The notes under the pieces: generated by a model
The model's input: only the letters and a program-made list of their open reading frames with translations
What the model was told of the DNA's origin: nothing
The model's database searches: none
Part shown: piece after piece, positions 1,307 through 50,657 of the stretch
How positions within the stretch are numbered: position 1 is the first letter of the stretch
How the letters are laid out: every line of letters begins with the position of its first letter
Program-made: the position numbers and the translations under genes
DNA from: Candidatus Parcubacteria bacterium
GTDB taxonomy: Bacteria > Patescibacteriota > Patescibacteriia > Patescibacteriales > UBA12075
Length of the DNA stretch: 64,000 nt
NCBI GenBank assembly: GCA_002869165.1
Contig: PKTK01000001.1
Coordinates: 382,005-446,004 of the forward strand
Direction: 5' to 3'

Positions 1307-2590
1307 TTATTTTACATCCCAGTTTACACGCAAAAAGTGTGAGGCACACGACATACAAGGATCATAAGCTCTGATTATCTTTTCTGCTTCTTTTTTAATT
1401 ACTTCTTCCCCATCGTTTAACTTTTCGTGAACCATCTGCCTTAGATCTTCTCTCAGATTTATTAGATTTTGAGCAGTAGGTATAACAAGATTTGTGTATC
1501 TAACCTTCCCTTCATCAATACCTAGCCAGTAATACAATGAACCTCGTGGGGCTTCAATTACCCCAACCCCTTCACCAGTAAGAGTTTCTGGTTTGACTGG
1601 TTCTTCTTTTTTGAATTCGAAGTTCTGTAATAACTCAATTGAATGATCAACTGAATGAAGTGTTTCAAGGGCTTGGGCAAGATTATTGTGGTAAATGTTT
1701 ATTGAAGGAAATACATCAAGATATTTTTTGGCATCTTTTTTGGTGTTAGCGTGCATAGCTTCTTTATTTAAGTTTAAGCGAGGAAGTGAACCAACCATGT
1801 ATTCGTGCCCTTCAAATTTAAAACCTTTTGCTTGAGAATAAGGAATTACAACATCATGAAGATGGTCCCAAAAATCAGCTTCTGCCACTTCAGCGCCACT
1901 AGAAGAAACTATATTCCCTTCCAGATATGAAAAATCTTCAGTCTTAATAGCAACAAAATCTGTTTTCCTTTCTAATTTCCAGTCACATTCATAATAAATA
2001 TCGCAGAGTTTTAAAACCATTTCTCTGATGCTTTTTAGTTCTTCTATCATTGCTGGAATTTTTTCCATATCAGGTACGGCTGAAAATCCACCAACTTGTT
2101 CATAAATAGCATGAACAGATCGACCAGCAATTAATTTTGATAAATTATTACCAGCTGCTTTTATATGAAGAGAGTCATTAATCAAATCCTTGTGCGATTC
2201 AGCTAGATCAAGAGCTGAATCAACTCCGAATAAGTCAGGGAGAGAAAAGAAATATAGGTGTAGGGCATGATCTCTAATCATGAGAGAGTGCATAGTTAGT
2301 TTTCTCATGCGCATTGTCTGCTCAGTAGGTTTGATGTTCAGAGTTTTTTCAACAGCCTCAATACAAGCTGTCATGTGAGCAATAGAGCAAGTACCACAGA
2401 TACGAGAAGTAAGTTGTGGTACAGAGTTCCAATCAGCGCCTTTAACTGCTTGATTGAAAAAACGCATATTTTCCATAACTCGAAGATCCACATCTACAAC
2501 TTCTCCATCCCTGATCTTAATATCAAGATCAGCATGACCTTCGATTTTTGATATTTTATTTATTGATATGTCTAAATCATGTGAATGCAT
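1307..2590 (-). CDS. [NiFe]-hydrogenase large (catalytic) subunit, cytosolic group-3-like
   Basis: N-terminal RICGTCSIAH (RxCGxCxxxH) and C-terminal DPCMSCASH (DPCxxCxxH) are the Ni-Fe ligand motifs. A 10-aa tail after the His is consistent with protease processing. 427 aa. Confidence 0.9.
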   Translation of the reverse strand: MHSHDLDISINKISKIEGHADLDIKIRDGEVVDVDLRVMENMRFFNQAVKGADWNSVPQLTSRICGTCSIAHMTACIEAVEKTLNIKPTEQTMRMRKLTMHSLMIRDHALHLYFFSLPDLFGVDSALDLAESHKDLINDSLHIKAAGNNLSKLIAGRSVHAIYEQVGGFSAVPDMEKIPAMIEELKSIREMVLKLCDIYYECDWKLERKTDFVAIKTEDFSYLEGNIVSSSGAEVAEADFWDHLHDVVIPYSQAKGFKFEGHEYMVGSLPRLNLNKEAMHANTKKDAKKYLDVFPSINIYHNNLAQALETLHSVDHSIELLQNFEFKKEEPVKPETLTGEGVGVIEAPRGSLYYWLGIDEGKVRYTNLVIPTAQNLINLREDLRQMVHEKLNDGEEVIKKEAEKIIRAYDPCMSCASHFLRVNWDVK

Positions 2591-5644: not shown

Positions 5645-5718
5645 TCGGAGATCGTCTAATGGTAGGACTCCAGGTTTTGGTCCTGGCTATCGGGGTTCGA
5701 ATCCCTGTCTCCGAGCCA
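5645..5718 (+). tRNA. tRNA-Gln(UUG): tRNA-Gln (anticodon UUG), CCA encoded
   Basis: Manual cloverleaf: acceptor TCGGAGA/TCTCCGA, D stem GTCT/GGAC, anticodon stem CCAGG/CCTGG with loop TT-TTG-GT, T arm CGGGG-TTCGAAT-CCCTG, discriminator G + CCA. 74 nt. Confidence 0.9.
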
Positions 5719-7311
5719 AGAAAGACGAAGCGATGCGAGAGCATCGCTTTTGTTGTAATCTAAGTGAGAATTCATCGGTTCTAACCTATCTAATTTAGCA
5801 TTGAAAGTTTTTGCGTTCTCATAAATCGGCATATACCATTTATAAAGTGAGATTAGCACTTTTTTGTCTTTTATTTCTCGGTTCGAACCTAGATCAATGA
5901 GTATCTCTCTTTTGACTGAATTATCGCTTTTAAGGAACTTCTTTTTAGCATGAGTGGCAAAAACAAACTTTTCTTTGGTCAGTTCAATCAAATCTTCTTC
6001 ATTGTTTCTCTTTTCTTTTTTCTTAGTTAAATTTTCGAGTTCATTTTTCAGATTCATTTTCTCTTTCAAATATTCTTCATCATCCAATAAGTTTTTAGCC
6101 CTCATCATAGTTAGGTTAGAAATCTCACTTTCTATTTCCTTTGCTCTGTCATTCTGATTAGCCTCAATTTGCTTTTCCTCTCGCTTCTCAGAGCCTTTCT
6201 GGGTGTCTAGATGTTCCAATGCCCAATCAAGAAATTTGGGATGAATTTCCAGTCTTTTGAGTTTTTCAAACACTTCTGTTTTTATCTCATTTTCTTCAAC
6301 AGAACCTTGTTTGCAATTAGCTTCTTTACTTTTGTGAGTACAATGGTAATAGTCATAACCCTTTACTTTATTTTTACTTTTAATATACTTAGTTTTATGT
6401 TCAGCAGTTATTGAACAACCGCAATCAGCACACTTAAACATTCCTGAATAAGTAAAGTCATGTTTTTGTGGCTTTCTTTTACATCCTCTTTGTCCTAACA
6501 ATTCCTGAATTCTGTTAAACTCATCAATCGTTATTATTTGTTTATGTCTTCCTTTACTTTCTTTTCCACTATAAACAATAATCCCGGCATAAAACGGGTT
6601 ACCTAGCATTTTATACCAGACACTTCTTGATAATTTACCACCGCCAGATTTCTTCTTTTTCCTAGTGCGATAATTCCAATCTTCATTCAATATATTTAAA
6701 ACCTCTTGAGCTGTATAGGCTCCACTTAAAAACAAATCAAATGCTTTTCTCAGTAGCACAGTTCTTTTTTTGTCCGTGATAATAGCCCTTTGTCCTTTTT
6801 CCAGTCTCATATCATTCAGGTACCCCTCAGGAGCAACACCAGGCAACCAACCCAAAGACACTTTCTTCTCCAAACCTCTTTTTACATCTTTACCTAGTTT
6901 TGATGAGAAATACTGAGATTGAGAAAGTGCCAACTGCAACATCATTATTCCCTCAGGACTATTATCAAAATTATATGAGCCGAATTTGAGATCATGGATT
7001 ATTCCAGTTCGTACCAAGTAGGTAATAGTTGAAGCATCTATTTCGTTTCTCGATAACCTGTCTGGATGCCAAGCAATTATTCCCTGTGCTTCACCAAGTT
7101 TTATTCGTCTAATCATGTCCTCAAACACAGGACGATTATACGGCTTAAAAGCAGAATACTTTTCTTCTAAAATTTCAACAATATCAAAACCAGGACAGGT
7201 TTTTTTAACACTATCTTTTTGTGAGTCAATCGAAAGAGCCTGTCTTTCTTCTCCTTCTGTTGATTTTCTCACATAAGCGAAATATTTAGTTTTGTTTTCT
7301 TGGTTTACCAT
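5656..7311 (-). CDS. large serine recombinase/integrase
   Basis: Start chosen at MVNQENKTKYFAYVRKSTEGEERQALSIDSQ, which is a resolvase-type catalytic N-terminus (YxRxST..Q..S...Q). It also has a recombinase domain, a Zn-ribbon (CADCGC...YYHCTHK) and a long coiled coil. The ORF track extends to 7440, and the 3' end reads antisense through the tRNA. Confidence 0.85.
   Translation of the reverse strand: MVNQENKTKYFAYVRKSTEGEERQALSIDSQKDSVKKTCPGFDIVEILEEKYSAFKPYNRPVFEDMIRRIKLGEAQGIIAWHPDRLSRNEIDASTITYLVRTGIIHDLKFGSYNFDNSPEGIMMLQLALSQSQYFSSKLGKDVKRGLEKKVSLGWLPGVAPEGYLNDMRLEKGQRAIITDKKRTVLLRKAFDLFLSGAYTAQEVLNILNEDWNYRTRKKKKSGGGKLSRSVWYKMLGNPFYAGIIVYSGKESKGRHKQIITIDEFNRIQELLGQRGCKRKPQKHDFTYSGMFKCADCGCSITAEHKTKYIKSKNKVKGYDYYHCTHKSKEANCKQGSVEENEIKTEVFEKLKRLEIHPKFLDWALEHLDTQKGSEKREEKQIEANQNDRAKEIESEISNLTMMRAKNLLDDEEYLKEKMNLKNELENLTKKKEKRNNEEDLIELTKEKFVFATHAKKKFLKSDNSVKREILIDLGSNREIKDKKVLISLYKWYMPIYENAKTFNAKLDRLEPMNSHLDYNKSDALASLRLSWLGDRDSNPDSQDQNLESYH
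5728..5753 (+). terminator. terminator hairpin after the tRNA
   Basis: AAGCGATGC-GAGA-GCATCGCTT followed by TTGTTG. Confidence 0.6.
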
Positions 7312-7485
7312 ATTGTCATGTTTTAGATAATCAAAAAGGGACGGTCGTGGAGACCCAACTAAACAATACCAAAAGTAATATTTGTCGGCACAAACCGCCC
7401 CTTCCTGGGGACAAATAAAATAAAAACTTCTGGTATTCAATTGTATAGTTAGGTCTCAATTTCATATTATCATAAATAATAGTTT

Positions 7486-20946: not shown

Positions 20947-22506
20947 TTATCTACTTTTTGGAGTAACCTTGAAACCAAGGTATTTCCCCATCATCAACCT
21001 ACTTTGAGCCTCTAAACCTGGTACTGAACCAAAAATTATTATACTAAGAGGCAAAAATAACCATTGACCTAGCATAACCAGATATTTTAATACTGAAAGA
21101 TGTTTTGGTTTTTTGGGTAAAAGTAAAGTTGATAAAATGGCAGAAAAAACAAGGCCAGACATAGCAAGAGTCATTAAAGTTCTCGTAATTGCTGGTAGAT
21201 TAGCAGAAAGAGTAGTGGAATTAAAGCTATCTCCACCGAAAAATAGCGGAAACCAGCCAATCACACCTATAATAAGAGCATTTGTTGCCCAAGAATGGAA
21301 TCCGTACAGCTGAACAAGAATTCTACCTACGAACTTCTTCATTGGAATCTGTCCTTTTAGCTTATAGGTATTAAACATTAAATATGGTAAATTTTCTACC
21401 CCCCACCCCCAACGCCTTTGTTGGATATACAGGGCCTTGGCTGTTTCCTTAAACGAGGCATCCATAGTTACATCCATGGAAACAGGATAATACATGGGTT
21501 CAACTGTATAATCTCCTTTGTAATAACAAAAACAGTGCCAAAAAATTCTGGAATCTTCTGAAACCATTGTTTTAGACCAGAATCCAATATCAACCAAAGC
21601 TTGCCAGGTCATGGAATGGGACGAGTAAGTAGCAAGCTTTTCTTGTCTAATCTGTTGCATCATTTGCCAAAAAGTATTTGAGCTAGCAGCAACTCGAGCA
21701 AAGAATGGGGCTTGCCAAACATTATTGTGATATACAGGTATTGGTTGATAACTTGCTCGATATTGATTTTTATTGGTTAAGAATCTATATGCAAGATTAA
21801 AAAAATAATCAGGATAGATAATGGTATCGATATCAAAAACGCTTACCAATATTTTGTCATAGTCAAGCTTCTCTTTGTCTACATAGTCATTTTTAATAAT
21901 TTGTGCAGCCCAAGCCTGGTTAGCACCTTTGCCTTTTAATTCACCTTCAATGCCGTCTGGGTGAATGCTTAAAATAAATTTTTTAAAAAGACCTTTGTAC
22001 TGTTCTTTTATTTTTTTGGCATTTTCAAGTATCTCAAGTCCTCCTCTTTCTTCTATTGTTAAAACCAAAACAATGTTTTTGCTTGGATATTTTCCATTTA
22101 TTATTGACTGGATGCTAGTATTAATAACTTCATAACTTTCGTTGTAGGCTGGGAAAATAACAATTTGAAGTAAGTCTTCCCAATTAAGTTTCTTAATACC
22201 AGATTTAGTTTTAATGTCTATACTACCTAAATTCTGACATTTTTTCTGCCAATCAAACTTTATGTTTTTTTTCATCTTAATGTAAGAAGATGCTAAATGA
22301 ATACCAAGATACAATACCAGAAGTAACCAATAAACATCAAAAGCAATTATAAAAAAAGCAATATAAACAGGAAAAACAAAAGATAAAACGGTTAAAAGAA
22401 ACAAAGTCAACCACGATAAAAAGCCTGGAAATATTTCCAGGATTCTATATAATTTATAGTCTTTGCCACTTAATTCATCTGCGCGTCCAATTTTTAAGTA
22501 ATCCAT
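20947..22506 (-). CDS. membrane-embedded family-2 glycosyltransferase, processive (QxxRW) type
   Basis: Multiple TMs flank a GT2 core containing ..FDIDT.. and QQRRWGWG (the Q(R/Q)xRW motif of cellulose/chitin-synthase-like enzymes). Confidence 0.75.
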   Translation of the reverse strand: MDYLKIGRADELSGKDYKLYRILEIFPGFLSWLTLFLLTVLSFVFPVYIAFFIIAFDVYWLLLVLYLGIHLASSYIKMKKNIKFDWQKKCQNLGSIDIKTKSGIKKLNWEDLLQIVIFPAYNESYEVINTSIQSIINGKYPSKNIVLVLTIEERGGLEILENAKKIKEQYKGLFKKFILSIHPDGIEGELKGKGANQAWAAQIIKNDYVDKEKLDYDKILVSVFDIDTIIYPDYFFNLAYRFLTNKNQYRASYQPIPVYHNNVWQAPFFARVAASSNTFWQMMQQIRQEKLATYSSHSMTWQALVDIGFWSKTMVSEDSRIFWHCFCYYKGDYTVEPMYYPVSMDVTMDASFKETAKALYIQQRRWGWGVENLPYLMFNTYKLKGQIPMKKFVGRILVQLYGFHSWATNALIIGVIGWFPLFFGGDSFNSTTLSANLPAITRTLMTLAMSGLVFSAILSTLLLPKKPKHLSVLKYLVMLGQWLFLPLSIIIFGSVPGLEAQSRLMMGKYLGFKVTPKSR

Positions 22507-23117
22507 TTTTTGGCTAATTTTAATTTATTTATTGGAATGAATAATATCTTAGCAAGATAATAAAGGAAATACAAGCCAATAGTAAAAGCTATTAAATTAT
22601 GTTGATTTTCAGCTAACATTAAATAAGAAAATATTGCATCTACAACATTGGTGAAGTTAAAGATTACATCCCAGGTATTAAGTCTTTCGGTTAAGCCAAT
22701 TAGTAAGCCGAGAGAAATAATTGGAGTTATTATAACTGGAAATAACTTAGCAAAGTTTTTGGAAAGTACTTTTGAGAGGTATACTCTTATTTGATCGATC
22801 ATATAAAAGTAAAACACCCAACCTAACAGTCCAAAAATAAAAAAGAATATTATATGCCAGGCATTATTAGTACAGATATTTGTCTGACTTACCTCACAAA
22901 AACCATTTATATGCCGAATATCAACAATCATATATGGTGCATTGGGTGAAAAAATTAACCAAACAAAAAATGTTATAAATTGCAAAAATGACTTGAATTT
23001 ATAATTTGATTTGTATAGTTTGATTAACAAATAACCTAAAAAAAAGGGTGTTAAACCAAGTAAGATATTTACAAACACAAAATAGACTGGGTAATCCCCT
23101 ACATATATGTCAAACAT
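22494..23117 (-). CDS. DUF1361-like integral membrane protein
   Basis: Polytopic. The ..SPNAPYMIVDIRHI.. motif resembles DUF1361. It overlaps the GT2 start by 13 nt. Confidence 0.55.
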   Translation of the reverse strand: MFDIYVGDYPVYFVFVNILLGLTPFFLGYLLIKLYKSNYKFKSFLQFITFFVWLIFSPNAPYMIVDIRHINGFCEVSQTNICTNNAWHIIFFFIFGLLGWVFYFYMIDQIRVYLSKVLSKNFAKLFPVIITPIISLGLLIGLTERLNTWDVIFNFTNVVDAIFSYLMLAENQHNLIAFTIGLYFLYYLAKILFIPINKLKLAKKWIT

Positions 23118-23120
23118 AAT

Positions 23121-25010
23121 TTATAATTTTATTATTCCACCATCTTTAAGTTCAAATTCTTTTTCGTTAGAAGTATTTTTTTTATTAGATGGTTTAAAAA
23201 CGGGAGGTTTGATATCAACACTTTCATTTTCTTTTGCTTTGGCTTTTTTTTCTGTTTCAGAGTCAATATTTTTACCTTTAAAATTCACTGCTCCTATATT
23301 TAAAGCTTCAGAAAGTGAGAGTTCTGGTTCATTTTTAGGAGCTTTAGCTTGAGCTTCTGGTTTAAAAGCACTGTTTTGCTTAATTTTTTGAGGAGATAAG
23401 CTGTTTTTTTCCTTGATTCTCCTTAACTCTTCTTCTTTGGCAATTCTCCTTTGTTCAGCTTCTTTATTTTTTTCATCTTTAAGTTTGTTTAAACAGTCTT
23501 TGCAATATACGGGTCGGATGCCATCAGGCACAAAAGAGGTTCTGGTGATTGTTCCACACATTGAGCAGTTAGTTTCATTTTTATATACTTCAGTATTTTG
23601 TGTTGGACTTAATTTTTGTTGAGCAATACTTGGTTGATCAGGATTTTGAAAAGTTTTCTGGTTTTGAAAATTTTGGGATTTTTTTGCCCTGGCGTTTTCT
23701 TTTTTTTGTATCATTGCCTGAGCAGTTTCCTCTTCATCGTTGTGCCATTTGGCTATTTTTTCTTCAACACTTGCTTTGTCTTTGGCGTATCTTTCTCTGC
23801 TTACAGTGATTACTTTTTCAACATTCCCGGTTTCCTCATCTTTTGTTAAAGGATGAAGACCTCTGGCTGAAAATGGTTCAGAGGCAATACCGTCAATCAT
23901 TAGTTTTAAATAAAATTCGTATTTTGGTTGATTTACAATGTCTTCTTCTGTGAATGTTGTAGTAAATTCAGGTACTAGTGCCTCGGCATCAGCTGCTCCT
24001 ACTCGAAAAACTACCATTGTGCCAACGTTTCCAAAAACAGCATTGCGGACAACATCACCAAGCTGTTCAATGTACTGGTGAGCCATGATAAAATTCAGTT
24101 TATATTTTCTTGCTTCAGATAAGATATTAGCAAACGAATCAGTGGTAAAATTCTGAAATTCATCAATGTATAAGTAAAAATCTTCTCGTTCACTTTCAGG
24201 AATATCAACTCGACTCATTGCTGCTAATTGAATTTTAGTAATAATCATATTTCCTAGAAGCTGTGAACTATCCTCTCCAATTCTTCCTTTACTTAAATTT
24301 ACAATTAGAATTTTTCTTGAATCCATAATCTCTCGCATATTGATAGTTGATTTTACCTGTCCAACAATATTTCTAATCAAAGCAGTTGAGAGAAATTGTC
24401 CAACTTTATTTTGTATCGGAGATACAGCTTCAGAAGCAAACTTGTCAGCGTAACCAGCAAATTCATTTACCCAAAAGGCCCTAACAACTGGGTCTTCAAC
24501 GTTATCAACAACTTTTTTGCGAAATTTTTTGTCTGAAAGCATTCTGATAACTGAAAGCAAAGTAGAACCTGGATAGTCAAGAGTTGCCAGTAAAGCATTA
24601 CGCAAAATATATTCAAGTCTAGGTCCCCAAGAATCAGCCCACAATTTTTGAAATACACCAATCAGACCTGACGCCACTAAATGTCTAAGGTGCGGTTCTA
24701 CTTGTTCGAGAATATTAAAAGCAATTGGGTATTCATAATCAGCAGGATTGAAATACACAACATCATTAATTCGCTCACTAGGTATAAATTGAATAACCTT
24801 TTCAGCAAGATCTCCATGAGGATCAACAACAGCTACTCCATTCCCTGCTCGTATATCATCAACTATCATATTTTCAAGCACAGTAGACTTACCAACGCCA
24901 GTTTTACCGATTATGTACATATGTCGTCGTCGGTCATCTTGTTTGATGCCAAATTTTCTAAGACTATTTCTATAAGTTGTTTCTGCAAAAACAGTTATTT
25001 CTTTGTTCAT
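23121..25010 (-). CDS. VirD4/TraD/HerA-like P-loop ATPase with Lys/Glu-rich linker and C-terminal zinc ribbon
   Basis: Walker A IIGKTGVGKST, ..VVDPHGDL.., Walker B LYIDEFQNF. C-terminal CSMC-x17-CKDC. No N-terminal TM. Confidence 0.7.
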   Translation of the reverse strand: MNKEITVFAETTYRNSLRKFGIKQDDRRRHMYIIGKTGVGKSTVLENMIVDDIRAGNGVAVVDPHGDLAEKVIQFIPSERINDVVYFNPADYEYPIAFNILEQVEPHLRHLVASGLIGVFQKLWADSWGPRLEYILRNALLATLDYPGSTLLSVIRMLSDKKFRKKVVDNVEDPVVRAFWVNEFAGYADKFASEAVSPIQNKVGQFLSTALIRNIVGQVKSTINMREIMDSRKILIVNLSKGRIGEDSSQLLGNMIITKIQLAAMSRVDIPESEREDFYLYIDEFQNFTTDSFANILSEARKYKLNFIMAHQYIEQLGDVVRNAVFGNVGTMVVFRVGAADAEALVPEFTTTFTEEDIVNQPKYEFYLKLMIDGIASEPFSARGLHPLTKDEETGNVEKVITVSRERYAKDKASVEEKIAKWHNDEEETAQAMIQKKENARAKKSQNFQNQKTFQNPDQPSIAQQKLSPTQNTEVYKNETNCSMCGTITRTSFVPDGIRPVYCKDCLNKLKDEKNKEAEQRRIAKEEELRRIKEKNSLSPQKIKQNSAFKPEAQAKAPKNEPELSLSEALNIGAVNFKGKNIDSETEKKAKAKENESVDIKPPVFKPSNKKNTSNEKEFELKDGGIIKL

Positions 25011-25012
25011 AT

Positions 25013-26485
25013 TTATATAAATGGTAAATTACTTGGTGCTTCGTTTGTATTTTTGTCTGTGTCTTCTTTCTTTTTTTGTAGAGCATTACCAGTACCATGA
25101 CTAACAACTTCATTTTGAAATATATTCGACGAAGCTTCTTCTGGTATATTTCTAGGAGTTGATGGTGTATCCATATCAAAAGGGAGTGACATAGGTGGTT
25201 CTGAGCGTTTTCCCGATACTTTTTGAATTAGCGGAGCTCTAACAGTAGCTTCAAATGGAAAATGCCATAAGGTAGCTAACTCTTCGGTAGAAAATATTTT
25301 TGGTGTTCTACCAACAAAACTATCTCTGGCTTTATAGGCTCTCATTAATTTATTTTTTCTTTCATTTAGTCTGTAATCTTTGAAGAAATATGCAGTTGAG
25401 GTAGCTGTTTTGTCCATATCGGGTTTAAAACTATTTAGATCTGAATCAACAAATTGTTTCATATATCCCACAAAACCATTAACAGCTTTTGCCTTGTTGA
25501 TAATATCTTTTTTTGCAACGTAAATCATTCTAATTTTTGATTTAAAACCATTTTTGCTCATCTTTTCCTGAATTGCTTCGACTTGTTTTTTTTCTCTATG
25601 TTTTAGTTGGATCATAGTAAGTGGATCCCCTGCTTCTTCGCTAGAAGCAGCACCAAAACCAAGGGCTTCGGTAAGTGCGCCAAAAATTTCAGTAATTGCA
25701 GTTATAAATATACTTAGCACAAATTCAAGCGGATTCTCTTTGGGCGCAGATGTTTTTTCTTTCATTATTTTTTTCACCTCATCTTCCCCAATTATATTCC
25801 AAGTATAATCAGTCGGAGTTAATAGTATCTGCATCCACATTTGTTCTCCAGGTCTCATACTACTATATAGATCAAGTAAAGAGGCTAAAGGATCTTTAAA
25901 AACCATTTCTGCTCGACTGGTTTGATCATAAAACTGAGGGTAGGTTTTGAAGGGATATGCATCTGATTTTACAGGCATGAATTCTGTGCCCCAGATATCA
26001 TAGTCAGAATCAGGAAATTTACTATGTATATTTTCTGTGTAATCATTTATTTCAGTAATTTCTGCATCAGGATATGTGGAATAAACAGCCGACTCTACCA
26101 GATTCCTAAAAGAAGCGGGGGTGCGAATTAGAAACTGGGTATAACCATCAATACTAACTATTTCAAAGCTAAAACCAAGTTGAATAGCACCTATCCAATA
26201 AGTGTCTATCAAATTGTGTGAACCATGAGCACCAGCAAAGTAAGTAAACATATTCTCAACTGATCGAAGTGAAACTTCATTTCCCCGAGGAATATCAATG
26301 GCCAAGAATATAAACTTTTGCTCAGAGAGCCATTGGCCATTGATGTAATCTTTCCAAAATTCCTTCATACCCCAAAGAAAAACAATAGCCAAAGGAATCC
26401 AGCCTCCATAATACAATACGGCAAACAATATTTGTTCTGGTGACATGTTTGCTAAGCTAGTAATAAAAGAAAAGTCCAATAGCAT
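25013..26485 (-). CDS. membrane protein (2 N-terminal TMs + large soluble domain), partner of the ATPase
   Basis: 490 aa with a 2-nt gap to the ATPase gene. I could assign no catalytic motif. Confidence 0.6.
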   Translation of the reverse strand: MLLDFSFITSLANMSPEQILFAVLYYGGWIPLAIVFLWGMKEFWKDYINGQWLSEQKFIFLAIDIPRGNEVSLRSVENMFTYFAGAHGSHNLIDTYWIGAIQLGFSFEIVSIDGYTQFLIRTPASFRNLVESAVYSTYPDAEITEINDYTENIHSKFPDSDYDIWGTEFMPVKSDAYPFKTYPQFYDQTSRAEMVFKDPLASLLDLYSSMRPGEQMWMQILLTPTDYTWNIIGEDEVKKIMKEKTSAPKENPLEFVLSIFITAITEIFGALTEALGFGAASSEEAGDPLTMIQLKHREKKQVEAIQEKMSKNGFKSKIRMIYVAKKDIINKAKAVNGFVGYMKQFVDSDLNSFKPDMDKTATSTAYFFKDYRLNERKNKLMRAYKARDSFVGRTPKIFSTEELATLWHFPFEATVRAPLIQKVSGKRSEPPMSLPFDMDTPSTPRNIPEEASSNIFQNEVVSHGTGNALQKKKEDTDKNTNEAPSNLPFI

Positions 26486-26670
26486 CGACTTGATTATAAG
26501 ATTTGGTTTATTAATTTAGTTATTATTTATTATAACACATTTTATTGCTTTGTTACAATTATTTTCACACAGCATATAGAAAAATAAATTTTGTTAATTT
26601 GAGGAGATGTTTTAGAATTCCGTCTTTTTATCTATTTACAGAATTTTTCGCTTCCGCTCAGAATTTTACA

Positions 26671-26702
26671 AAAAAACAACCCACAAAAGTGGGTTGTTTT
26701 TT
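26671..26702. terminator. bidirectional terminator
   Basis: A-run, CAACCCAC-AAAA-GTGGGTTG, T-run. Confidence 0.7.
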
Positions 26703-26723: not shown

Positions 26724-27962
26724 TTAACTGTTTAGGATGTATCTGCCGTTAACTTTTGAGAATTTGTCTTTATTCATTAAGGCAAGGATGATAGTTGCTT
26801 TTTTAACAACCCTTGATTCAAGTACTTTATCAATAATTTCTTCTCTTTTTAGAGGTTGTTCAGAGTTGTTCAAGATTTCAACAATTACATCTACAACTGT
26901 TCCTTTGGTGTAGCCCCATTCTTTTAGAGCGTATAGACCTCTGCCAACCAAAACATATTTTTTATCAAGAATTAGTTCGTTATGAACTGTGGCTGGATTT
27001 GCTTTTCTGTGGTCAAAACAAACATTATTAATCTTTTCTGCTATTTCTGCAAAATGCATTGGTTTAGCATTGTTCTTGAGCACCAAATATATTTTGTCAT
27101 TTATTGTTCTTGGTTTAATTTCTCTAGAGTTGTGAGTTCCCCAGTGACCAAATTTATTTTGATTGATTTTCTTGTGAGATTTAACCAAAGCATAAAGTGG
27201 TTTATGTTCGTTGATTATATCGGTATCTTCATTAAAATGTGGATCTTCTAGAAATCTTGCAATATCTAAATTTGACTGAATAGCTAATTTTTCTTCATGC
27301 TTTCTAAAAGATTCAAGCTCTTTAATAAGTTCAATAACCTTATTTGTAGCTTGAGTGTCTTTAAAATCTTTTACTTTTTCATAAAGTTCAATAGCTATTT
27401 CTTCCAAGTGTTCAATGTTTTTAAACTTAACCTTGTATGAATCTAGAAAATGTTTATGATTTATAATTTCTTCAAATTCATCATGAAGAAGTTTGGTAAT
27501 CATAAAATTTAGATAATTCTTGTGGATGTTAGAGTCATGATTTTTGTCCTGAGTCCCATCCATGGAAAAGCCAACTAGCAAATCTAGTAAATATTCTTTT
27601 TCCATCAATCCCCCATGTTCATCAAGTAGTTGATAAATTACATTTTTCAAAGCTGAGATATATTCCTTCAAATTTTGTAACTCTTGTAGCTTTTTGATGC
27701 TAGTAGTTTCGATTTGTCGAATTCTTTCTCTGGTCAGTTGATGAGCTGAGCCAATGCTTTCTAGTGTTTCCTTCTTGTCTGAATGCAAACCATGACGTCT
27801 GATTAGGACATCTCGTTCACGTTCTGATAACTCAGTAAAAAGGTTATTAATGATTTCAACAGCATCAAGACTGCCGACTTCATCAGCTTTCTTTGAGTTA
27901 ATAATTTGGTCGAGTATTGAGATATTGTCTGACATATAAATAATGTCGCAAGCCATGGGCAC
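26724..27962 (-). CDS. sigma-70 region-4 domain protein with C-terminal HARE-HTH/winged-helix domains
   Basis: N-terminal ..ERERDVLIRRHGLHSDKKETLESIGSAHQLTRERIRQIETTSIKKL.. is a sigma region 4. C-terminal ..KPMHFAEIAEKIN...ATVHNELILDKKYVLVGRGLYALKEW.. is HARE-HTH-like, followed by a second wHTH-like repeat. No region 2 is seen. An alternative start is at 27935. Confidence 0.7.
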   Translation of the reverse strand: MPMACDIIYMSDNISILDQIINSKKADEVGSLDAVEIINNLFTELSERERDVLIRRHGLHSDKKETLESIGSAHQLTRERIRQIETTSIKKLQELQNLKEYISALKNVIYQLLDEHGGLMEKEYLLDLLVGFSMDGTQDKNHDSNIHKNYLNFMITKLLHDEFEEIINHKHFLDSYKVKFKNIEHLEEIAIELYEKVKDFKDTQATNKVIELIKELESFRKHEEKLAIQSNLDIARFLEDPHFNEDTDIINEHKPLYALVKSHKKINQNKFGHWGTHNSREIKPRTINDKIYLVLKNNAKPMHFAEIAEKINNVCFDHRKANPATVHNELILDKKYVLVGRGLYALKEWGYTKGTVVDVIVEILNNSEQPLKREEIIDKVLESRVVKKATIILALMNKDKFSKVNGRYILNS

Positions 27963-30636: not shown

Positions 30637-30930
30637 TTAAATTAAATCGTGATAAAGATCTTTCCAATGTGGATTAAGCTCTTTAATTATTTTCTCTTTT
30701 TTCTGCCTATTCCAATCTTTCAATTCTTTTTCTCTTTCTAGTGCTTCATTAACATATTTAAATATTTCATAATACACTAGTTTTTTGCATGAGTACTTTT
30801 TTGAAAATCCTTCGATCTTCCCCTCTCTATGTTCTATTATTCTTCTAATTAGTGAATTTGTAAACCCAATGTATAAAGTACCGCTACTGCTAGCAATTAT
30901 ATAAACATAAAATTTATATTCCCTCCTCAT
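30637..30930 (-). CDS. small GIY-YIG nuclease-family protein (97 aa)
   Basis: MRREYKFYVYIIASSSGTLYIGFTNSLIRRIIEHREG.. carries the GIY..YIG..R..H/E core. A GAGGAGGG SD precedes the ATG at 30930. The ORF-track extension is read-through of repeat B. Confidence 0.85.
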   Translation of the reverse strand: MRREYKFYVYIIASSSGTLYIGFTNSLIRRIIEHREGKIEGFSKKYSCKKLVYYEIFKYVNEALEREKELKDWNRQKKEKIIKELNPHWKDLYHDLI

Positions 30931-30940
30931 ATTTTTTTCT

Positions 30941-31037
30941 TTGTCATTCCGTAAGGAGCGATAGCGACTGTAGAAATCCCTTAAACGTGAAAATAGCACA
31001 GTTAAGAGATTTCTTAGCTTCGCTACGAGATGACAAA
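30941..31037 (+). repeat. hairpin repeat unit B (5' flank of GIY-YIG gene 1)
   Basis: The left arm is near-identical to unit A (TTGTCATTCCGTAAGGAGCGATAGCGACTGTAGAAATCCC). The loop is the reverse complement of A's loop. The right arm is GAGATTTCTTAGCTTCGCTACGAGATGACAAA. Confidence 0.8.
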
Positions 31038-36485: not shown

Positions 36486-38222
36486 ATGTTTTCCGATAGA
36501 CAAATAAAAGAAATATTAGTAAGCAATGAAATTATCAACCTTGATGATTTCAATAAACATTCTAAGGAAGCCAAAACTTTAGGCAAAAGACTTGAAAATT
36601 ATCTATCTGAAAAAAAGATAATATCTGGAGATGCTTTATATGAAAATGCTGCTAATTATTACAAGGTTCCTTTTATTAATTTAAAAAACCAAACCATCAG
36701 AAAAGATGTGCTTTTATCTATTCCAGAAAAAATTGCTAGTACTCACAAGATAATTGCCTTTGATGCTGATGATAAAAAAATCAAAATTGCCTTGAGTAAT
36801 CCAGAGGATATTGAAATTCTTGAGTTTATCAAAAAGAAAACCGGTTTAGATGTAGAAATCAATCTAACCTCCCCCTCTCAAATAAATGATGTTATTAAGC
36901 AATATCACAAAAGTTTAAAAGCAGAATTTGATTATTTGTCAGGAGACAAAGCTGATAAACTTGGGAAGGTTAGTGACGACAAAGATTTAAAAAAATTAGC
37001 CGAAGATTTGCCAGTTGTTCGTATTGTTGATACCTTGCTTGAATACTCTGTTTTAGAAGGTGCTTCTGATATTCATATCGAACCAGAAGAAAAAAAAGTG
37101 TCTGTTAGGTATAGAGTTGATGGAGTATTGCAGAATGTTATGGTGCTTCCAAAAACTGTTCAATCTGGTATTATAGCTCGTATTAAAATTCTTTCAAACT
37201 TAAAAGTTGACGAACATAGATTACCCCAAGATGGTCGTTTCAAAATAACCACTAACGACTATAAGGTTTCTTTTCGTGTTTCAATACTTCCAACATTTGA
37301 TGGTGAAAAGATAGTGATGCGTCTTTTGAATGAAAAAGCCCAAACATTAACCCTTGAGCAACTTGGTTTTCAACCTGGACCATTTCAAATAGTTAAAAGA
37401 AATGTGGCAAAACCAAATGGAATTATTCTTGTTACTGGTCCAACTGGTTCTGGTAAAACTACCACCCTATACACAATTTTAGGAATCCTAAACACTCCCA
37501 AAGTCAATATATCCACCATCGAAGATCCAATTGAATACCGCATGGAACACGTTAATCAATCTCAGGTTAATTCTAAAATTGGCTATACCTTTGCAGCTGG
37601 ACTTAGAGCTTTTTTACGTCAAGATCCAGATATTATCATGGTTGGTGAAATTCGTGATCAAGAAACAGCTGAAATTGCTATTCATGCTGCTATGACTGGT
37701 CATGCTGTATTATCAACAATTCACACAAATGATGCTGCCACAACCATGCCTAGATTAGCTGAAATGGGTGTACCGACTTTTTTGATTGGATCTACCATGA
37801 ACTTGATTGTTGCTCAAAGATTGGTTCGTAAAATTTGCACGGGCTGTATTCAGTCATACAACCTAGGAGAAGAAGAGATTAAAGAATTAGAAAAACAGCT
37901 TGATATTGATAGTATTCTAAATACTCTTGAAAAAGAAAAATCAATCATGGATGCTAAGAAAGGCCTTAAAAATTTACTTTTTTATCGTGGCAAAGGTTGT
38001 AAGAAATGTAACAACTCAGGTTACAAGGGTCGTATTGGAATATATGAGATTTTGGAAAACAGCGAGGAAATTAGTTCAATAATATTACGCAACGGAAGTG
38101 CTAGTGAATTAAAAAAAGAAGCCTTAAGTAAAGGCATGCTTATGATGGTTGAAGATGGTTTTATTAAAGCAAAAAATGGTGTTACCACCTTAGAAGAAAT
38201 TTTGAGAGTTACTAAAGAATAA
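36486..38222 (+). CDS. pilB: type IV pilus assembly ATPase (GspE/PilB family)
   Basis: T2SSE N-domain, Walker A GPTGSGKTTT, Asp/His boxes, tetracysteine CTGC...CKKC. Confidence 0.9.
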   Translation: MFSDRQIKEILVSNEIINLDDFNKHSKEAKTLGKRLENYLSEKKIISGDALYENAANYYKVPFINLKNQTIRKDVLLSIPEKIASTHKIIAFDADDKKIKIALSNPEDIEILEFIKKKTGLDVEINLTSPSQINDVIKQYHKSLKAEFDYLSGDKADKLGKVSDDKDLKKLAEDLPVVRIVDTLLEYSVLEGASDIHIEPEEKKVSVRYRVDGVLQNVMVLPKTVQSGIIARIKILSNLKVDEHRLPQDGRFKITTNDYKVSFRVSILPTFDGEKIVMRLLNEKAQTLTLEQLGFQPGPFQIVKRNVAKPNGIILVTGPTGSGKTTTLYTILGILNTPKVNISTIEDPIEYRMEHVNQSQVNSKIGYTFAAGLRAFLRQDPDIIMVGEIRDQETAEIAIHAAMTGHAVLSTIHTNDAATTMPRLAEMGVPTFLIGSTMNLIVAQRLVRKICTGCIQSYNLGEEEIKELEKQLDIDSILNTLEKEKSIMDAKKGLKNLLFYRGKGCKKCNNSGYKGRIGIYEILENSEEISSIILRNGSASELKKEALSKGMLMMVEDGFIKAKNGVTTLEEILRVTKE

Positions 38223-38236
38223 ATTAAATAAAGTAT

Positions 38237-39409
38237 ATGCCTGTAGATTTTTCAAAAAAGAATGTTGACTCCAAAGAGGAGGAGGAGTCAAGTTCAAAAA
38301 AAAGAAATAAGAAAAGCTCAGAAAATAACTCGTCGCCAATGGATAAGATCAATAGATGGCTTTTACGTTTTTCAAAAGTACCTCTAAAAGAAAAGGTTTT
38401 TTTTGTACAAAACCTAGGCCTCATGCTTCGTTCTGGAATTTCTCTGTCTATTGGTCTCAAAACTCTTGCCAATCAAACAAGCAACAAAAGACTAGCAGAA
38501 ATCCTAAATAATGTTGGTGAGGAAGTTGAAAAAGGAAACAGTTTTGGGGATAGTCTTAAAAAACACAAAAATGTTTTTGGTGATATGTTTATTTCTATGG
38601 TTGAAGCTGGAGAGTTGTCTGGTAAGCTTGAAGATGTTTTGGTTCAGCTTCATATCCAAATGAAAAAAGAAAATGCTCTTATTTCCAAAGTAAAAGGGGC
38701 TTTAACTTATCCAGCTGTTATCATATTTGCAATGTTGGGAATCGGAACATTCATGATCGTTTTTGTTGTGCCAAAGATTACGGCTATGTTTGATGAAATG
38801 AATGCAGAACTCCCCTTACCAACCAAAATTTTAATTAAAACAAGTGAAATTGTCATTGATAATGGTATACTTACTATAATACTGCTTACTGTACTTATAT
38901 TTAGTTTTTTTAAAGCAATTAAAACTGAAAAAGGCAAATTTATTTTTCAAGCTTTTTTGCTTAAACTACCTATCTTTGGTCCGATCATGAAAAAGATAAA
39001 TACTGCTAGATTTGCTAGAAATATAAGTTCTCTTTTAAAAACTGATATTATGATTATTAAATCATTTCAAATTACAGCAAATGTACTTGGAAATCTGCAT
39101 TATCGTAGAGCTTTGTTAGCTATGGCACAAAAGATAAAAAAAGGTTAAAAGCTCAATGAAACAATTAGCCAGTATCCAAATTTATTTACTCCAGTGGTAG
39201 CGCAAATGGTAGCCATTGGCGAGGAAACTGGTGAACTTGATAGTATTCTTGAGGAACTAGCTGGTTTTTATGAAGAAGAGATAGATCTTATTATGGATAA
39301 TCTTCCAGCAATCATCGAGCCGGTTTTAATTCTAGCTCTTGGTGTTGGTGTTGGCGGCGTAGCTATCGCCATTATTATGCCTATGTATTCAATTACCTCG
39401 GCTATTTAA
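38237..39409 (+). pseudogene. pilC: type IV pilus platform protein PilC (GspF family) interrupted by one in-frame TAA
   Basis: The ORFs 38237-39148 and 39194-39409 are in the same frame. Read-through gives ..AQKIKKG*KLNETISQYPNLFTPVVAQMVAIGEETGELD.., which parallels the first GspF repeat ..EEVEKGNSFGDSLKKHKNVFGDMFISMVEAGELSGKLE.. Confidence 0.8.
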
Positions 39410-39425
39410 TTTAGAACAAAACTAG

Positions 39426-40589
39426 ATGTTAAAGTTATTTAACTCAAAACAAAATATATTTGGTCTTGATATTTCAGATAAAACCTTAAAAATAGTTCAA
39501 ACCAAAAAATCAGGAGACAAGACCAAAATTCAGGCGATTGGTAGATATAAACTTAAGGATAAGGTTATTGTAAATGGAGAGATCAGGGATCCTGAGGAAT
39601 TTGTCAATTCTGTAAAGGAGTGTATAAAAAAACCTATCTTTGGCTCAATCACTACTGACTTGGCAGTCATGTCTCTACCTGAAAAAAAATGTTTTATCAA
39701 ATCAATTCAAATTGAAAAAGGTCCAAATTCAATTGATGATCTAATTGGTAGTGAAATTGAAAAGTACTTTCCTTTTTCAAAAGATGATATTTACTACGAC
39801 TGGGAAATTTTCAATGAATACTCGGATTATTACGATGTGTTGGTAAGCGCAGCTCCAAAATATATTGTTGACTCTTATATTGAAAATGCTAGTAAAGCTG
39901 GTTTGTCAGTTGTAGCTATTGAGCCTGAGTCAGTAGCTATCTGCAGAGCTTTAACCAAAAAAGCTGAAAAGAAAAGTAAGAACAATGAAGCACCCACATT
40001 CGCAATCATTGATATTGGCGCAGTTGAAACCTTTATGGTTATATCTTCAAATTCATCCATTATCATGTCTATGGGGATTGATGTATCAGGTCAAGAAATA
40101 ACGGAAAAAATTGCTACTACTCTTCAAATAAATGAATCTCAAGCAGAAAAAGCCAAGATAATTTGCGGATTAGATAAGACCAAGGCTGAGGGAATTATTT
40201 ATGAAATCCTTCAAGAAATGATTGAAAGAATGAATTCTAAAATTCAAAGTATTATTAACTTTTACAAAGACAACTACCCTGATTTTCCTGATATCGAGTT
40301 TGTATCTATCTCTGGAGGAGGATCTGATGTAAATAGTTTACATGAAGCTATTGCAGAAAGATTAAAACTTGAAATTAAAGACGCAGATGTATTTACTAAT
40401 ATAAATGAAGATATAGAGAAATATTCTGATAGTTTTACAAAAACACATAATTTAAATACAGATGTTTTATCAAAGCCTTCTAAAAATAATAAAAAAAGTT
40501 CTATAGTACCTGAAACAATTTCAAGCAAGCACAATTCCTCGCTTAGCTATGTAACATCAGTTGGCTTAGCTTTGCGAGAAAATTTATAA
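39426..40589 (+). CDS. pilM: type IV pilus assembly protein PilM (actin-like ATPase fold)
   Basis: N-terminal ..FGLDISDKTLKIV.., position after pilC, 387 aa. Confidence 0.75.
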   Translation: MLKLFNSKQNIFGLDISDKTLKIVQTKKSGDKTKIQAIGRYKLKDKVIVNGEIRDPEEFVNSVKECIKKPIFGSITTDLAVMSLPEKKCFIKSIQIEKGPNSIDDLIGSEIEKYFPFSKDDIYYDWEIFNEYSDYYDVLVSAAPKYIVDSYIENASKAGLSVVAIEPESVAICRALTKKAEKKSKNNEAPTFAIIDIGAVETFMVISSNSSIIMSMGIDVSGQEITEKIATTLQINESQAEKAKIICGLDKTKAEGIIYEILQEMIERMNSKIQSIINFYKDNYPDFPDIEFVSISGGGSDVNSLHEAIAERLKLEIKDADVFTNINEDIEKYSDSFTKTHNLNTDVLSKPSKNNKKSSIVPETISSKHNSSLSYVTSVGLALRENL

Positions 40590-40590
40590 A

Positions 40591-41133
40591 ATGTATAATA
40601 TTAACTTGATTCCAAAAAGCCTCAAGGAAAAACTTGAGATGCAAAAAATATTAACAAAGGTAAACAAGTTTCTTGTGATTGTTTTTGTTTTTTGCGTTTT
40701 TTATTATGGAGTTTTATATGCTTCTTTTTATTACCTTGATAAGCATTACCAAGAAATTTCTGTTACCTATAATGATTTAAGTAAAGATGCTAAAAATTAC
40801 ACTAACACCATTGCAGATATCAATGAAAAAATTACTTATATAAAAGGGATACAAAAGGATAATTTTAACTTAAGTAGGGTTTTGCAAGATTTTGCTACAA
40901 TAGACAATCCTTCAATCAAGCTTGATCAAATTTCCATAGACACAGAAAGAAAGCTAATTAATATAAGTGGAGAAGCAAAAACCAGAGAAATGTTACTGAT
41001 ATATCAGGATAATCTTGAATCAATCCCCTATTTAAGTGATGTTAATTTACCTATTAGTAGTTTAGTTGAAAAAAACGATATCAAATTCAATCTAAACATA
41101 ACTTTTAAATTAGATGAGTTCGCCAAAAACTAA
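40591..41133 (+). CDS. pilN: PilN-like fimbrial assembly protein
   Basis: N-terminal MYNINLIP.., single TM, coiled coil, position after pilM. Confidence 0.65.
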   Translation: MYNINLIPKSLKEKLEMQKILTKVNKFLVIVFVFCVFYYGVLYASFYYLDKHYQEISVTYNDLSKDAKNYTNTIADINEKITYIKGIQKDNFNLSRVLQDFATIDNPSIKLDQISIDTERKLINISGEAKTREMLLIYQDNLESIPYLSDVNLPISSLVEKNDIKFNLNITFKLDEFAKN

Positions 41134-41683
41134 AGAAAAAACTACTGACCCAAAACAAATAATGCTAATTACGGTAATTATATTTTTAGTTGCATTGTTT
41201 GCTTTTGTGTATTTGCTTATAATCCCTCAAATAGAAAAAATCAAAGAAAAGCGAGTTACTATTGCTAACACAAAAATCGAAATCAATAAAAATACTCAAG
41301 AAGAGGAGAATTTAAGCACCCAAAAGTCCAAACTAGAATCAATAGAAGATCAATTAGAACAATTAGACAAGGTGTTCATAAACCGGAACAAAGAATTAGA
41401 ATTTATCACTACTTTGGAGGGGGTTGCTGCAAAAAATAATGTAGAGCAAAATATTGATCTTAAAGCATTTACCAATAACACAAAAGAAGGCTATGTTTCA
41501 ATTCCTTTAAATATTACAGTTAGTGGTAATTATTACAATGTTATAAGCTACATCCAAAACATTGAGTCATTGAGTTATTATTTTAATATCACTAATTTAT
41601 CACTCAATACAAACAGCTCTCAAGTTGAATCATATTCAAATATTAATGCAAGCATTAAAGCAAATGTGTTTATAAATAAATGA
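41114..41683 (+). CDS. pilO: PilO-like pilus assembly protein
   Basis: Single TM + coiled coil + small C-terminal domain. The assignment rests on gene order. Confidence 0.55.
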   Translation: MSSPKTKEKTTDPKQIMLITVIIFLVALFAFVYLLIIPQIEKIKEKRVTIANTKIEINKNTQEEENLSTQKSKLESIEDQLEQLDKVFINRNKELEFITTLEGVAAKNNVEQNIDLKAFTNNTKEGYVSIPLNITVSGNYYNVISYIQNIESLSYYFNITNLSLNTNSSQVESYSNINASIKANVFINK

Positions 41684-49604: not shown

Positions 49605-49646
49605 ACAAATAAAAATTGCAATTAAAATTGCAATTTTAAATAATTA

Positions 49647-50654: not shown

Positions 50655-50657
50655 ATT

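Follow-up and report, generated by a model that had tools for sequence, protein, structure and literature searches.

A two-gene locus on the chromosome of a Candidatus Parcubacteria bacterium raises the question of what a motor ATPase of the type IV coupling protein (T4CP) kind does when it has no membrane segment in its own chain and no type IV secretion system (T4SS) beside it. The locus lies within a 64-kb stretch of DNA with a GC content of ~32%, which is referred to below as the window. Two adjacent open reading frames (ORFs) of 490 and 629 amino acids (aa), placed 2 nucleotides (nt) apart by the original prediction, were borne out in both coordinates. The genes are co-oriented on the minus strand, with 2 nt between the stop codon of the first and the ATG of the second; both ORFs were read from the sequence.

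25013..26485, minus strand: DUF8128 membrane/docking subunit, 490 aa
23121..25010, minus strand: soluble T4CP-type P-loop motor ATPase, 629 aa

DUF8128 and the ATPase were found to be the halves of one machine, which is split in the window and fused into a single chain elsewhere. In the best explanation, for which a probability of about 0.45 may be given, DUF8128 would be the membrane anchor of a T4CP-type ring translocase that moves DNA or nucleoprotein, and the pair would act as a core chromosomal machine with a role beyond T4SSs. The molecular architecture contained in this explanation is highly probable.

The motifs that had been read from the 629-aa protein (Walker A, VVDPHGDL, Walker B and CSMC-x17-CKDC) were all present in it, and the expected low-complexity tail of ~200 aa corresponds to its last 209 residues.

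24885..24908, minus strand: Walker A motif GKTGVGKS (aa 35-42), invariant in 41 homologues
24147..24173, minus strand: Walker B region LYIDEFQNF (aa 280-288), aligned with LWLFIDELASL of TrwB
23124..23750, minus strand: low-complexity C-terminal extension of ~209 aa, rich in K, E, N and Q, recognized by composition
23481..23576, minus strand: CxxC-x17-CxxC zinc ribbon/treble clef (aa 479-510) within the tail

The sequence IIGKTGVGKST (aa 33-43) is followed by the T4CP-type motif VVDPHGDL (aa 61-68), and together they aligned with GATGTGKS...IVDPNGDM of TrwB. In the homologue alignment, the invariant columns of the Walker B region were L280, Y281, D283, E284, Q286, N287 and F288. The protein matched PF10412 (TrwB_AAD_bind) over aa 22-341 with 47.9 bits against a cut-off of 20.5 (E 1.2e-12); further Pfam matches were PF12696 (TraG-D_C), PF01935 (DUF87/HerA) and zf_Tbcl_2. 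Its best solved relative by sequence was TrwB (1e9r, E 6.8e-7). A Foldseek search with its AlphaFold model (pLDDT 66) returned DotL (E 5.5e-9), HerA, TrwB (TMt 0.61), Cag-beta and the C-terminal domain (CTD) of VirB4. In the model, seven helices at aa 106-211 form an all-alpha insertion between core strands (pLDDT 54-72). No hydrophobic or transmembrane (TM) segment was detected by hydropathy across the 629 aa. The PF10412 match, the relationship to TrwB, the fold matches and the hydropathy confirmed the predicted T4SS-coupling/HerA-FtsK class without a TM segment of its own: the ATPase is a coupling-protein (TrwB/VirD4/TraD)-type member of the HerA/FtsK superfamily that lacks an N-terminal TM domain.

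The tail of the ATPase consists of 16% K, 11.5% E, 9.6% N and 6.7% Q, has a pLDDT below 50 over most of its length and terminates in the conserved motif EFELKDGGIIKL, the consensus of which (ExELxEGxxIxF) was also found at the C-termini of distant homologues. Within the tail, the zinc-ribbon stretch was modelled with a pLDDT of 82-90. Its CSMC-x17-CKDC motif comprises C482, C485, C503 and C506, which are all invariant in the alignment, and it matched PF23477 (39 bits against a cut-off of 27, E 6.3e-10) and TIGR04272 (37.1 bits against a cut-off of 36, E 1.9e-9). Of 60 complete ATPase homologues, 39 had the ribbon and approximately one third lacked it, as did the fused forms described below. 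For this domain type, zinc binding has been demonstrated in vitro in small proteins of M. mazei only (PMC12704099).

The core of the ATPase (window positions 23751-25010) was compared with its counterparts in loci L002-L081. Its identity across the loci of different species was 73-82%, versus 61-75% for MraY, 51-63% for MurC and 42-58% for DUF8128, and it was the best-conserved gene product of the neighbourhood, above MraY, FtsW, MurC and MurB. This constraint is unusually strong for a "conjugation-type" protein.

A 99%-identical protein (P0001) and nearly all homologues of the 490-aa protein carry the precomputed tag PF26449 (DUF8128). No paper was found under this name in the literature searched, and comparison of the sequence with Pfam (in a copy without PF26449), NCBIfam, PADLOC and PDB, as a single sequence and as a profile, gave nothing meaningful. 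Two features of this protein were located by comparison with its homologues.

26366..26431, minus strand: single N-terminal TM helix with GWIPLA (aa 19-40), from the hydropathy of the window protein and 43 homologues
25016..25039, minus strand: C-terminal short linear motif APSNLPFI, from the C-termini of 44 + 38 homologues

The original prediction had given this protein two N-terminal TM segments, and this had to be corrected to one. The segment at aa ~19-40 is conserved with the motif GWIPxA (KD19 1.35-2.6 across all 44 sequences) and lies in a long helix of the model (residues 16-55). The second hydrophobic stretch is situated mid-protein (aa 252-275), is amphipathic, was modelled with low confidence and is poorly conserved (KD19 0.1-1.9 across homologues). 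Therefore, DUF8128 is a bitopic protein with one TM helix. Because the N side of the helix is acidic and free of K and R and a K follows the helix, the flanking charges weakly suggest an N-out/C-in topology with the large domain in the cytoplasm.

In the AlphaFold model of DUF8128 (pLDDT 75.6, pTM 0.70), the N-terminal TM helix leads into an alpha/beta core (aa 56-410), which is followed by a K/E-rich, disordered tail. In a Foldseek search, each of the top 13 PDB matches was to a full-length structure of TrwK, the VirB4 of R388 (E 9e-5 to 1.2e-3, prob >= 0.99, TM-scores ~0.33, with a TMq of 0.33 for the best match). TrwB, HerA and the CTD-only structures of VirB4, all of which were fold matches of the ATPase, were missing from this list. 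Since only full-length VirB4 was matched and the CTD-only structures were absent, the part of VirB4 that the DUF8128 core resembles appears to be the N-terminal domain (NTD); judged from the model, this is a resemblance of fold rather than proven homology. Behind the disordered linker, the C-terminus follows the consensus PPxNLPF[AV], in which P484 and P488 are invariant and N486 and L487 near-invariant in the alignment. This motif and ExELxEGxxIxF of the ATPase are plausible candidate docking peptides, as far as conservation of sequence can indicate.

Proteins that join both halves in one chain were found in phages and in metagenomic contigs. The phage family phrog_5156 (824 positions, "unknown function") matched DUF8128 at positions 76-354 (E 4e-17) and the ATPase at positions 407-816 (E 2e-61). 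A tblastn search with the ATPase core yielded Bacillus phage proteins with the ATPase in their C-terminal half, namely, G gp156 (825 aa), Shanette gp151 (913 aa) and 031MP002 gp52 (718 aa); these were linked to phrog_5156 by their expected length, and their membership in it is assumed. The N-terminus of phage G gp156 aligned with DUF8128 in hhalign (88.5%, E 2.7e-6), with the motifs FSFEI.S and YP..EI common to both, and the DUF8128 structure matched the same protein in BFVD by Foldseek (E 1.8e-16); its ATPase part was matched with E 3.5e-54. The ATPase profile also matched Shanette gp151 (E 1.3e-29), 031MP gp52 (E 2.1e-18) and an 812-aa protein of an Embleya plasmid (E 1.8e-70), the N-terminal parts of which matched DUF8128 weakly or not at all by sequence. 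A tblastn search with DUF8128 gave no match in phages and one weak match in plasmids (Priestia), and a homology search with the N-terminal region of phage G gp156 gave no matches.

In the metagenomic contigs L150 and L156, single-chain TM-DUF8128-ATPase proteins of 838-940 aa were found, with the N-terminal TM segment present (E 1e-20 to 1e-54 for the DUF8128 part and 1e-143 to 1e-214 for the ATPase part). They occur as tandem paralogues (838/913 aa at L150 5793-11608; 839/940 aa at L156 3843-9870) with a small ORF between the copies, and they adjoin tgt and secDF. In the supplement of PMC12102498, one genome has a pair of t4cp hits placed two genes apart, possibly the same tandem arrangement.

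Linkage of the separate genes was studied in 87 DUF8128-centred loci, of which 80 were from GTDB species representatives, and in 55 ATPase-centred metagenome loci. With 2316 representative clusters of DUF8128 at 50% identity, found in at least 587 GTDB species genomes, and with all 8000 scored candidates significant in the ATPase search, each protein has thousands of homologues, and neither is a chance ORF. The ATPase gene was located 4-588 nt downstream of DUF8128 in 49 of the 87 loci (56%) and never elsewhere within the locus, and DUF8128 was immediately upstream in 31 of the 55 ATPase-centred loci. Adjacency was kept even in lineages where DUF8128 shares only 31-34% identity with its window counterpart and the flanks are unrelated (SecDF...ClpB in L091, DnaKJ in L093, SecDF in L095); one such distant lineage (L092) had no adjacent ATPase gene. 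The fusions, the adjacency in distant lineages and the VirB4-NTD-like fold together identify DUF8128 as the partner of the ATPase, a role that had been proposed for the upstream membrane protein. The two parts are complementary: the TM segment missing from the ATPase is present in DUF8128, along with a VirB4-NTD-like platform.

A third gene accompanies the pair.

26724..27962, minus strand: 412-aa protein in which Pfam places sigma-70 region 4 at aa 44-94 and a C-terminal HARE-HTH at aa 286-349

This gene is co-oriented with DUF8128 and was immediately upstream of it in 72 of 85 loci (85%), which makes it the most constant neighbour. It was upstream of DUF8128 also in the clade without an adjacent ATPase gene, and it was present in 20 of 25 ATPase-centred loci having DUF8128 and, among four distant lineages, in two (L091 and L093). 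Its product is possibly a DNA- or RNA polymerase-binding partner of the pair. Its HARE-HTH domain is RNA polymerase delta-like. The pair had been described as self-contained; the absence of a T4SS or conjugative element from the window agreed with this description, but with the third gene as its most constant neighbour the pair is not strictly self-contained.

The absence of conjugation and secretion genes was established in a scan of 33 of the 58 window ORFs of >=120 aa, including every ORF of >=335 aa. Among these, no VirB4, VirB6, relaxase or integrase gene was found near the pair, and there were no pilin-type T4SS genes and no VirB3/VirB6/VirB8-type neighbours. A larger T4SS or conjugative element, which would have contradicted the prediction, was found neither among these ORFs of the 64-kb window nor in ~175 related loci screened with neighbour probes.

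The pair was compared with known systems. T4CPs (TrwB of R388, VirD4, TraD, DotL and Cag-beta) have in common with the ATPase a nucleotide-binding domain (NBD) with Walker A and B motifs, VVDPxGD after Walker A, an all-alpha insertion and an acidic or charged C-terminal extension. They differ in carrying an N-terminal TM domain in the same chain, whereas the window pair is chromosomal, has no relaxase or T4SS nearby, is conserved at the level of housekeeping genes and has a zinc ribbon in the tail. The ATPase also scored far below the cut-offs of the NCBIfam TraD-type equivalogs (42 versus 366 bits for TIGR03743, 34 versus 648 bits for TIGR03754 and 19 versus 521 bits for TIGR02759). T4CPs that lack the TM domain and rely on a separate membrane protein are a recognized subclass, represented by TraJ/TraI of pIP501 and TraG-TraJ of R27 (PMC7434980). 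As in the window pair, a soluble or incomplete ATPase needs a membrane protein encoded alongside; however, the pIP501 and R27 partners are small and polytopic, whereas DUF8128 is bitopic, 490 aa long and equipped with a large VirB4-NTD-like domain. The window pair, moreover, is not accompanied by conjugation genes.

VirB4 (TrwK of R388; TrsE/PrgJ of monoderm MPF-FATA systems) combines an N-terminal alpha/beta domain with a RecA-like motor, and this layout is recreated only by the two ORFs taken together or by the fusions. In pSK41, trsD, encoding a free-standing VirB4-NTD-like protein, is immediately upstream of the ATPase gene trsE, which is the gene order of the window pair. Unlike VirB4, the window motor is closer in sequence to T4CPs, DUF8128 carries its own TM helix and neighbours of the VirB3, VirB6 or VirB8 type are missing; the VirB4-specific Pfam profiles (CagE_TrbE_VirB, AAA_10 and P-loop_TraG) matched neither window protein.

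FtsK/SpoIIIE resemble the window pair in superfamily, ring-motor logic, membrane anchoring with a long low-complexity linker and a division-gene neighbourhood, but they have a gamma (KOPS-binding) domain and a polytopic N-terminus, neither of which is present in the window ATPase. The ATPase did not match FtsK_SpoIIIE (PF01580) at E <= 0.01, and no FtsK was among its fold matches at E <= 0.001. A replacement of FtsK was therefore not supported; TM7x reportedly has an FtsK of its own. HerA belongs to the same superfamily and was among the top fold matches, but it has a HAS barrel and a NurA or Sir2-type partner, whereas the ATPase has only a short beta-hairpin before Walker A and is neighboured by DUF8128, DUF1361 and GT2. 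In sum, the pair shares the NBD and the profile matches of T4CPs and departs from them in the in-chain TM domain and in the association with a relaxase and T4SS; the sequence characters of VirB4 and those of FtsK and HerA were not found in it. The pair is a derivative of the coupling proteins of monoderm conjugation, with the N-terminal module split off as DUF8128.

The fused phage proteins (G gp156, gp151 of Shanette, JL and CP-51, and 031MP gp52) differ from the pair in being single chains without an N-terminal TM segment. The 812-aa Embleya protein, annotated as a "conjugative DNA transfer family protein", has a TM-NTD-ATPase layout with a faint DUF8128 match. In contrast to the window pair, the fused phage and Embleya forms are part of mobile-element replication/transfer modules next to Replic_Relax: the Embleya cluster contains PrgI, XF1762, an ATP-binding protein, the T4CP, Replic_Relax and NlpC/P60, and Shanette gp151 is located between a partition gene and a Replic_Relax gene. 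As a separate observation, the fused T4CP gene is immediately upstream of Replic_Relax (PF13814) both on the Embleya plasmid NZ_CP108778 (L180, 1213-9268) and in phage Shanette (L177, 823-6314), and the two together look like a recurrent module of an actinomycete T4SS-like cluster and a Bacillus phage.

What we infer is the topology, the docking, the oligomeric state, the DNA substrate and the independence from a T4SS. DUF8128 would insert into the cytoplasmic membrane via its single N-terminal helix, and its large domain would face the cytoplasm as a platform for the motor, resembling in fold the VirB4 NTD, which holds the motor on the membrane in T4SSs. The 629-aa motor may dock on DUF8128 and oligomerize, presumably as a hexamer by analogy, and its ATP hydrolysis would power the threading of a polymer at the membrane. 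The substrate would most likely be DNA or a DNA-protein complex: the fused homologues of phage Shanette and the Embleya plasmid lie beside Replic_Relax relaxase-like genes, and the constant neighbour carries a pair of HTH-type domains. Recognition of the substrate could fall to the zinc ribbon, the K/E-rich tail and the sigma-r4/HARE-HTH protein. In Patescibacteria, the machine would be a chromosomal, vertically inherited and strongly constrained housekeeping device outside mobile elements, and most likely it would act independently of, or not only with, a distal T4SS.

Several observations weigh against this explanation. The ATPase gene was not within 10 kb of DUF8128 in 38 of the 87 loci (44%). 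Since 35 of these 38 loci fall in one sequence cluster or clade (group B), most of them reflect a single rearrangement. In L110, SigHARE-DUF8128 is followed by a 2.1-kb insert and then the ATPase gene, and in L090 the ATPase gene was found with GT2 and DUF1361 beside ftsAZ-nrd and without DUF8128; when the flanks of group-B loci were compared with those of DUF8128-less ATPase loci of the L090 type, only L110 overlapped. The hhalign comparisons of the DUF8128 profile with TrsD and TrsE of pSK41 and with Shanette gp151 were not significant, so the VirB4-NTD link is a structural one, with modest TM-scores and no sequence-profile link to TrsD, TrsE or PDB. The model of the ATPase is of mediocre quality. 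Proteins, too, are among the substrates of T4CPs, and an acidic C-terminal tail is a typical site for the docking of effectors or relaxosomes. The closest homologues in an informative context, those of the Embleya cluster, are genuine T4SS coupling proteins, and the T4SS clusters of Patescibacteria have no T4CP of their own; because of these two facts, a coupling role is quite possible.

Such a role has to be seen against the published survey of Patescibacteria (Quinonero-Coronel et al. 2025, PMC12102498). VirD4-type T4CP homologues numbered 5,713 in 2,918 of 3,035 genomes (96%), a count that mixes paralogues at ~2 per genome, which is a further point against the explanation given here. VirB4 was found in 2,417 of the 3,035 genomes (~80%); a T4SS is thus encoded elsewhere in most genomes, which leaves room for coupling. 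Only 148 of the 5,713 T4CP homologues were near virB4, and relaxases were present in only 103 genomes. The authors of the survey concluded that exaptation "cannot be ruled out" (PMC12102498). The pair could accordingly be the split coupling protein of a distal chromosomal T4SS that passes protein or DNA to a VirB4/VirB6 channel. This is a tentative alternative. It is consistent with T4CPs being the best-scoring characterized relatives, with the 812-aa TM-NTD-ATPase homologue in an Embleya cluster having PrgI and Replic_Relax, with the TraJ/TraI precedent of pIP501 (PMC7434980), with the frequent location of T4CP genes away from virB4 and with the T4SS of S. epibionticum, which has no recognizable coupling protein (Wang et al. 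2023). It is less easily reconciled with the wider spread of T4CP homologues, which exceed VirB4 by at least 501 genomes (2918 versus 2417), with the near absence of relaxases, with an ATPase more conserved than essential cell-wall enzymes and with synteny to housekeeping and sigma-r4/HARE-HTH genes, never to T4SS genes, across the ~175 loci. In S. epibionticum, the T4CP homologue was non-essential whereas the T4SS genes were essential (PMC12102498), a comparison that applies to the window ATPase only if the two are orthologous.

The genes around the pair are housekeeping genes for the cell wall and division. The window order is mraY-ftsW-...-murG-murC-murB, the sigma-r4/HARE-HTH gene, DUF8128, the ATPase gene, DUF1361 and a family 2 glycosyltransferase (GT2) gene; genes for a P-type ATPase, DivIC, an unassigned ORF and a penicillin-binding protein (PBP) come next. 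The two genes that follow the ATPase gene are these.

22494-23117, minus strand: DUF1361 membrane protein, by Pfam
20947-22506, minus strand: multi-TM GT2 glycosyltransferase, by Pfam

This context gives some support to an envelope or division machine that moves a substrate other than DNA, by protein export across the monoderm envelope (cf. the FtsK-like EssC/EccC of type VII secretion systems) or as an aid to a GT2/DUF1361 polysaccharide synthase. The context of the division and cell-wall (dcw) cluster, DivIC, PBP, Peptidase_M23, BacA, GT2/GT4, DUF4012 and SecDF is consistent with it, and the ATPase-DUF1361-GT2 cassette is tight and was kept in the DUF8128-less L090 and, with GT2 3' of the ATPase gene, in 32 of 36 close relatives. 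This reading is nevertheless unlikely: GT2 followed the ATPase gene in only 3 of 18 more diverse DUF8128-adjacent loci, which looks like inherited order, the housekeeping contexts vary (DnaKJ, ClpB, tgt) and no partners like those of type VII systems are present. To our knowledge, no HerA/FtsK-family ATPase moves polysaccharide. GT2 and DUF1361 were ruled out as functional partners, as their linkage is lineage-specific and is seen as inherited gene order.

That the pair is left over from a mobile element or carried by one, or belongs to a defence system (for example, as a MADS/HerA-type ATPase or a prophage gene), is very improbable. PADLOC mad8 (MADS) matched the ATPase at aa 25-368 (E 4e-16), HerA models matched it too, phrog_5156 is a phage family, and a serine recombinase is encoded 16 kb away. 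Homologues of the ATPase were found in 21 phage records and on 300 plasmid records, the latter mainly from Streptomyces, Bacillus, Staphylococcus, haloarchaea and Sulfolobus. However, when four neighbours, DUF8128 among them, were scanned with PADLOC, the only match was one to MzaA, made by the sigma-region-4 part of the upstream gene. Because no other defence-system gene was present among these four, the mad8 match probably reflects common T4CP-like ancestry. Moreover, the flanks are core cell-wall genes in the same order in many species, the GC content is unremarkable and the family, which is vertically conserved, occurs almost throughout the phylum. A defence system or prophage was rejected on gene context.

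The preferred explanation, a membrane-anchored translocase acting beyond T4SSs, may be extended to a phylum-wide, T4SS-independent pump for DNA or nucleoprotein, composed of the T4CP motor, the VirB4-NTD-like adaptor and the sigma-r4/HARE-HTH protein as the DNA-recognition component; in this specific form, it is a doubtful proposal. Such a pump would be an unrecognized core machine of host-dependent cells that might serve chromosome handling at division or DNA exchange with, or uptake from, the host, and its ancestry would be common with the T4CPs of monoderm conjugation and the Bacillus phage proteins. A link of the pair to uptake from a host, which the original prediction had raised, is speculation. 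The kind of machine is not new; new are the partner family, the fold assignment, the fusion evidence and the third conserved neighbour. The near-universal T4CP-like ATPase that lies away from T4SS genes in Patescibacteria thereby gains a dedicated membrane partner, an "orphan ATPase" becomes a defined three-gene system that can be tested in genetically tractable Saccharibacteria or in vitro, and Pfam DUF8128 and PHROG 5156 acquire a fold and a partner. Should the system turn out to be a T4SS-independent DNA or protein translocase, a phylum that accounts for much of bacterial diversity would have a new core machine; should it be the missing T4CP, the parts list of the essential Patescibacteria T4SS would be complete.

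The transcription of the pair was considered from two sites upstream of DUF8128.

26529..26558, minus strand: promoter-like site TTGTAA-18-TATAAT with a TG extension, 10/12 matches in a consensus scan
26670..26696, minus strand: terminator-like hairpin CAACCCAC-TTTT-GTGGGTTG with a T-run behind it, identified by inspection of the sequence

The promoter-like site is ~40 nt 5' of the DUF8128 start. The hairpin, which was absent from the consensus-scan listing, sits just 3' of the sigma-r4/HARE-HTH gene. The spacing within DUF8128-ATPase-DUF1361-GT2 is 2 nt, 3 nt and a 13-nt overlap. Because of the hairpin, the promoter-like site and this tight spacing, the four genes likely form a transcription unit of their own, separate from the sigma-r4/HARE-HTH gene.

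Further observations concern relatives of the ATPase and other genes of the window. On the Sulfitobacter mediterraneus plasmid NZ_CP081110 (L179, 7986-9173), a stand-alone ATPase of 395 aa, 42% identical to the core of the window ATPase (E 2e-100), was found among a recombinase and transposases and without DUF8128 (the DUF8128 profile was run on the ATPase only); this suggests a horizontal transfer with Patescibacteria as donor or recipient. In group-B loci, a GT4 glycosyltransferase and DUF4012 adjoin DUF8128 (e.g., L031 11419-15165), and both families also occur at window positions 48333-52682 (minus strand), ~22 kb away, flanking mreB. Small GIY-YIG nuclease genes, joined in L001 by a MazE-like antitoxin gene, are scattered within the dcw cluster (window 30637-30999, minus strand; L001 3298-3681 and 5556-5849).

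A large serine recombinase (Resolvase + Recombinase + Zn_ribbon_recom) is encoded at 5656-7440 (minus strand). Its ORF and tRNA-Gln (5645-5718, plus strand) share sequence on the 3' side of the tRNA, and this overlap may mark the boundary of an integrated element. At 1307-2590 (minus strand), a NiFe-hydrogenase large-subunit-like protein (PF00374, E 8.5e-32) is encoded in this small-genome organism. A type IV pilus cluster at 36486-41683 (plus strand) contains pilB (T2SSE + MshEN), pilC (T2SSF) and pilM, with two small ORFs downstream; the cluster lies 10 kb from the pair on the other strand and diverges from the dcw genes at their mraY end. The juxtaposition of pilB and mraY was also found in L006 and L087.

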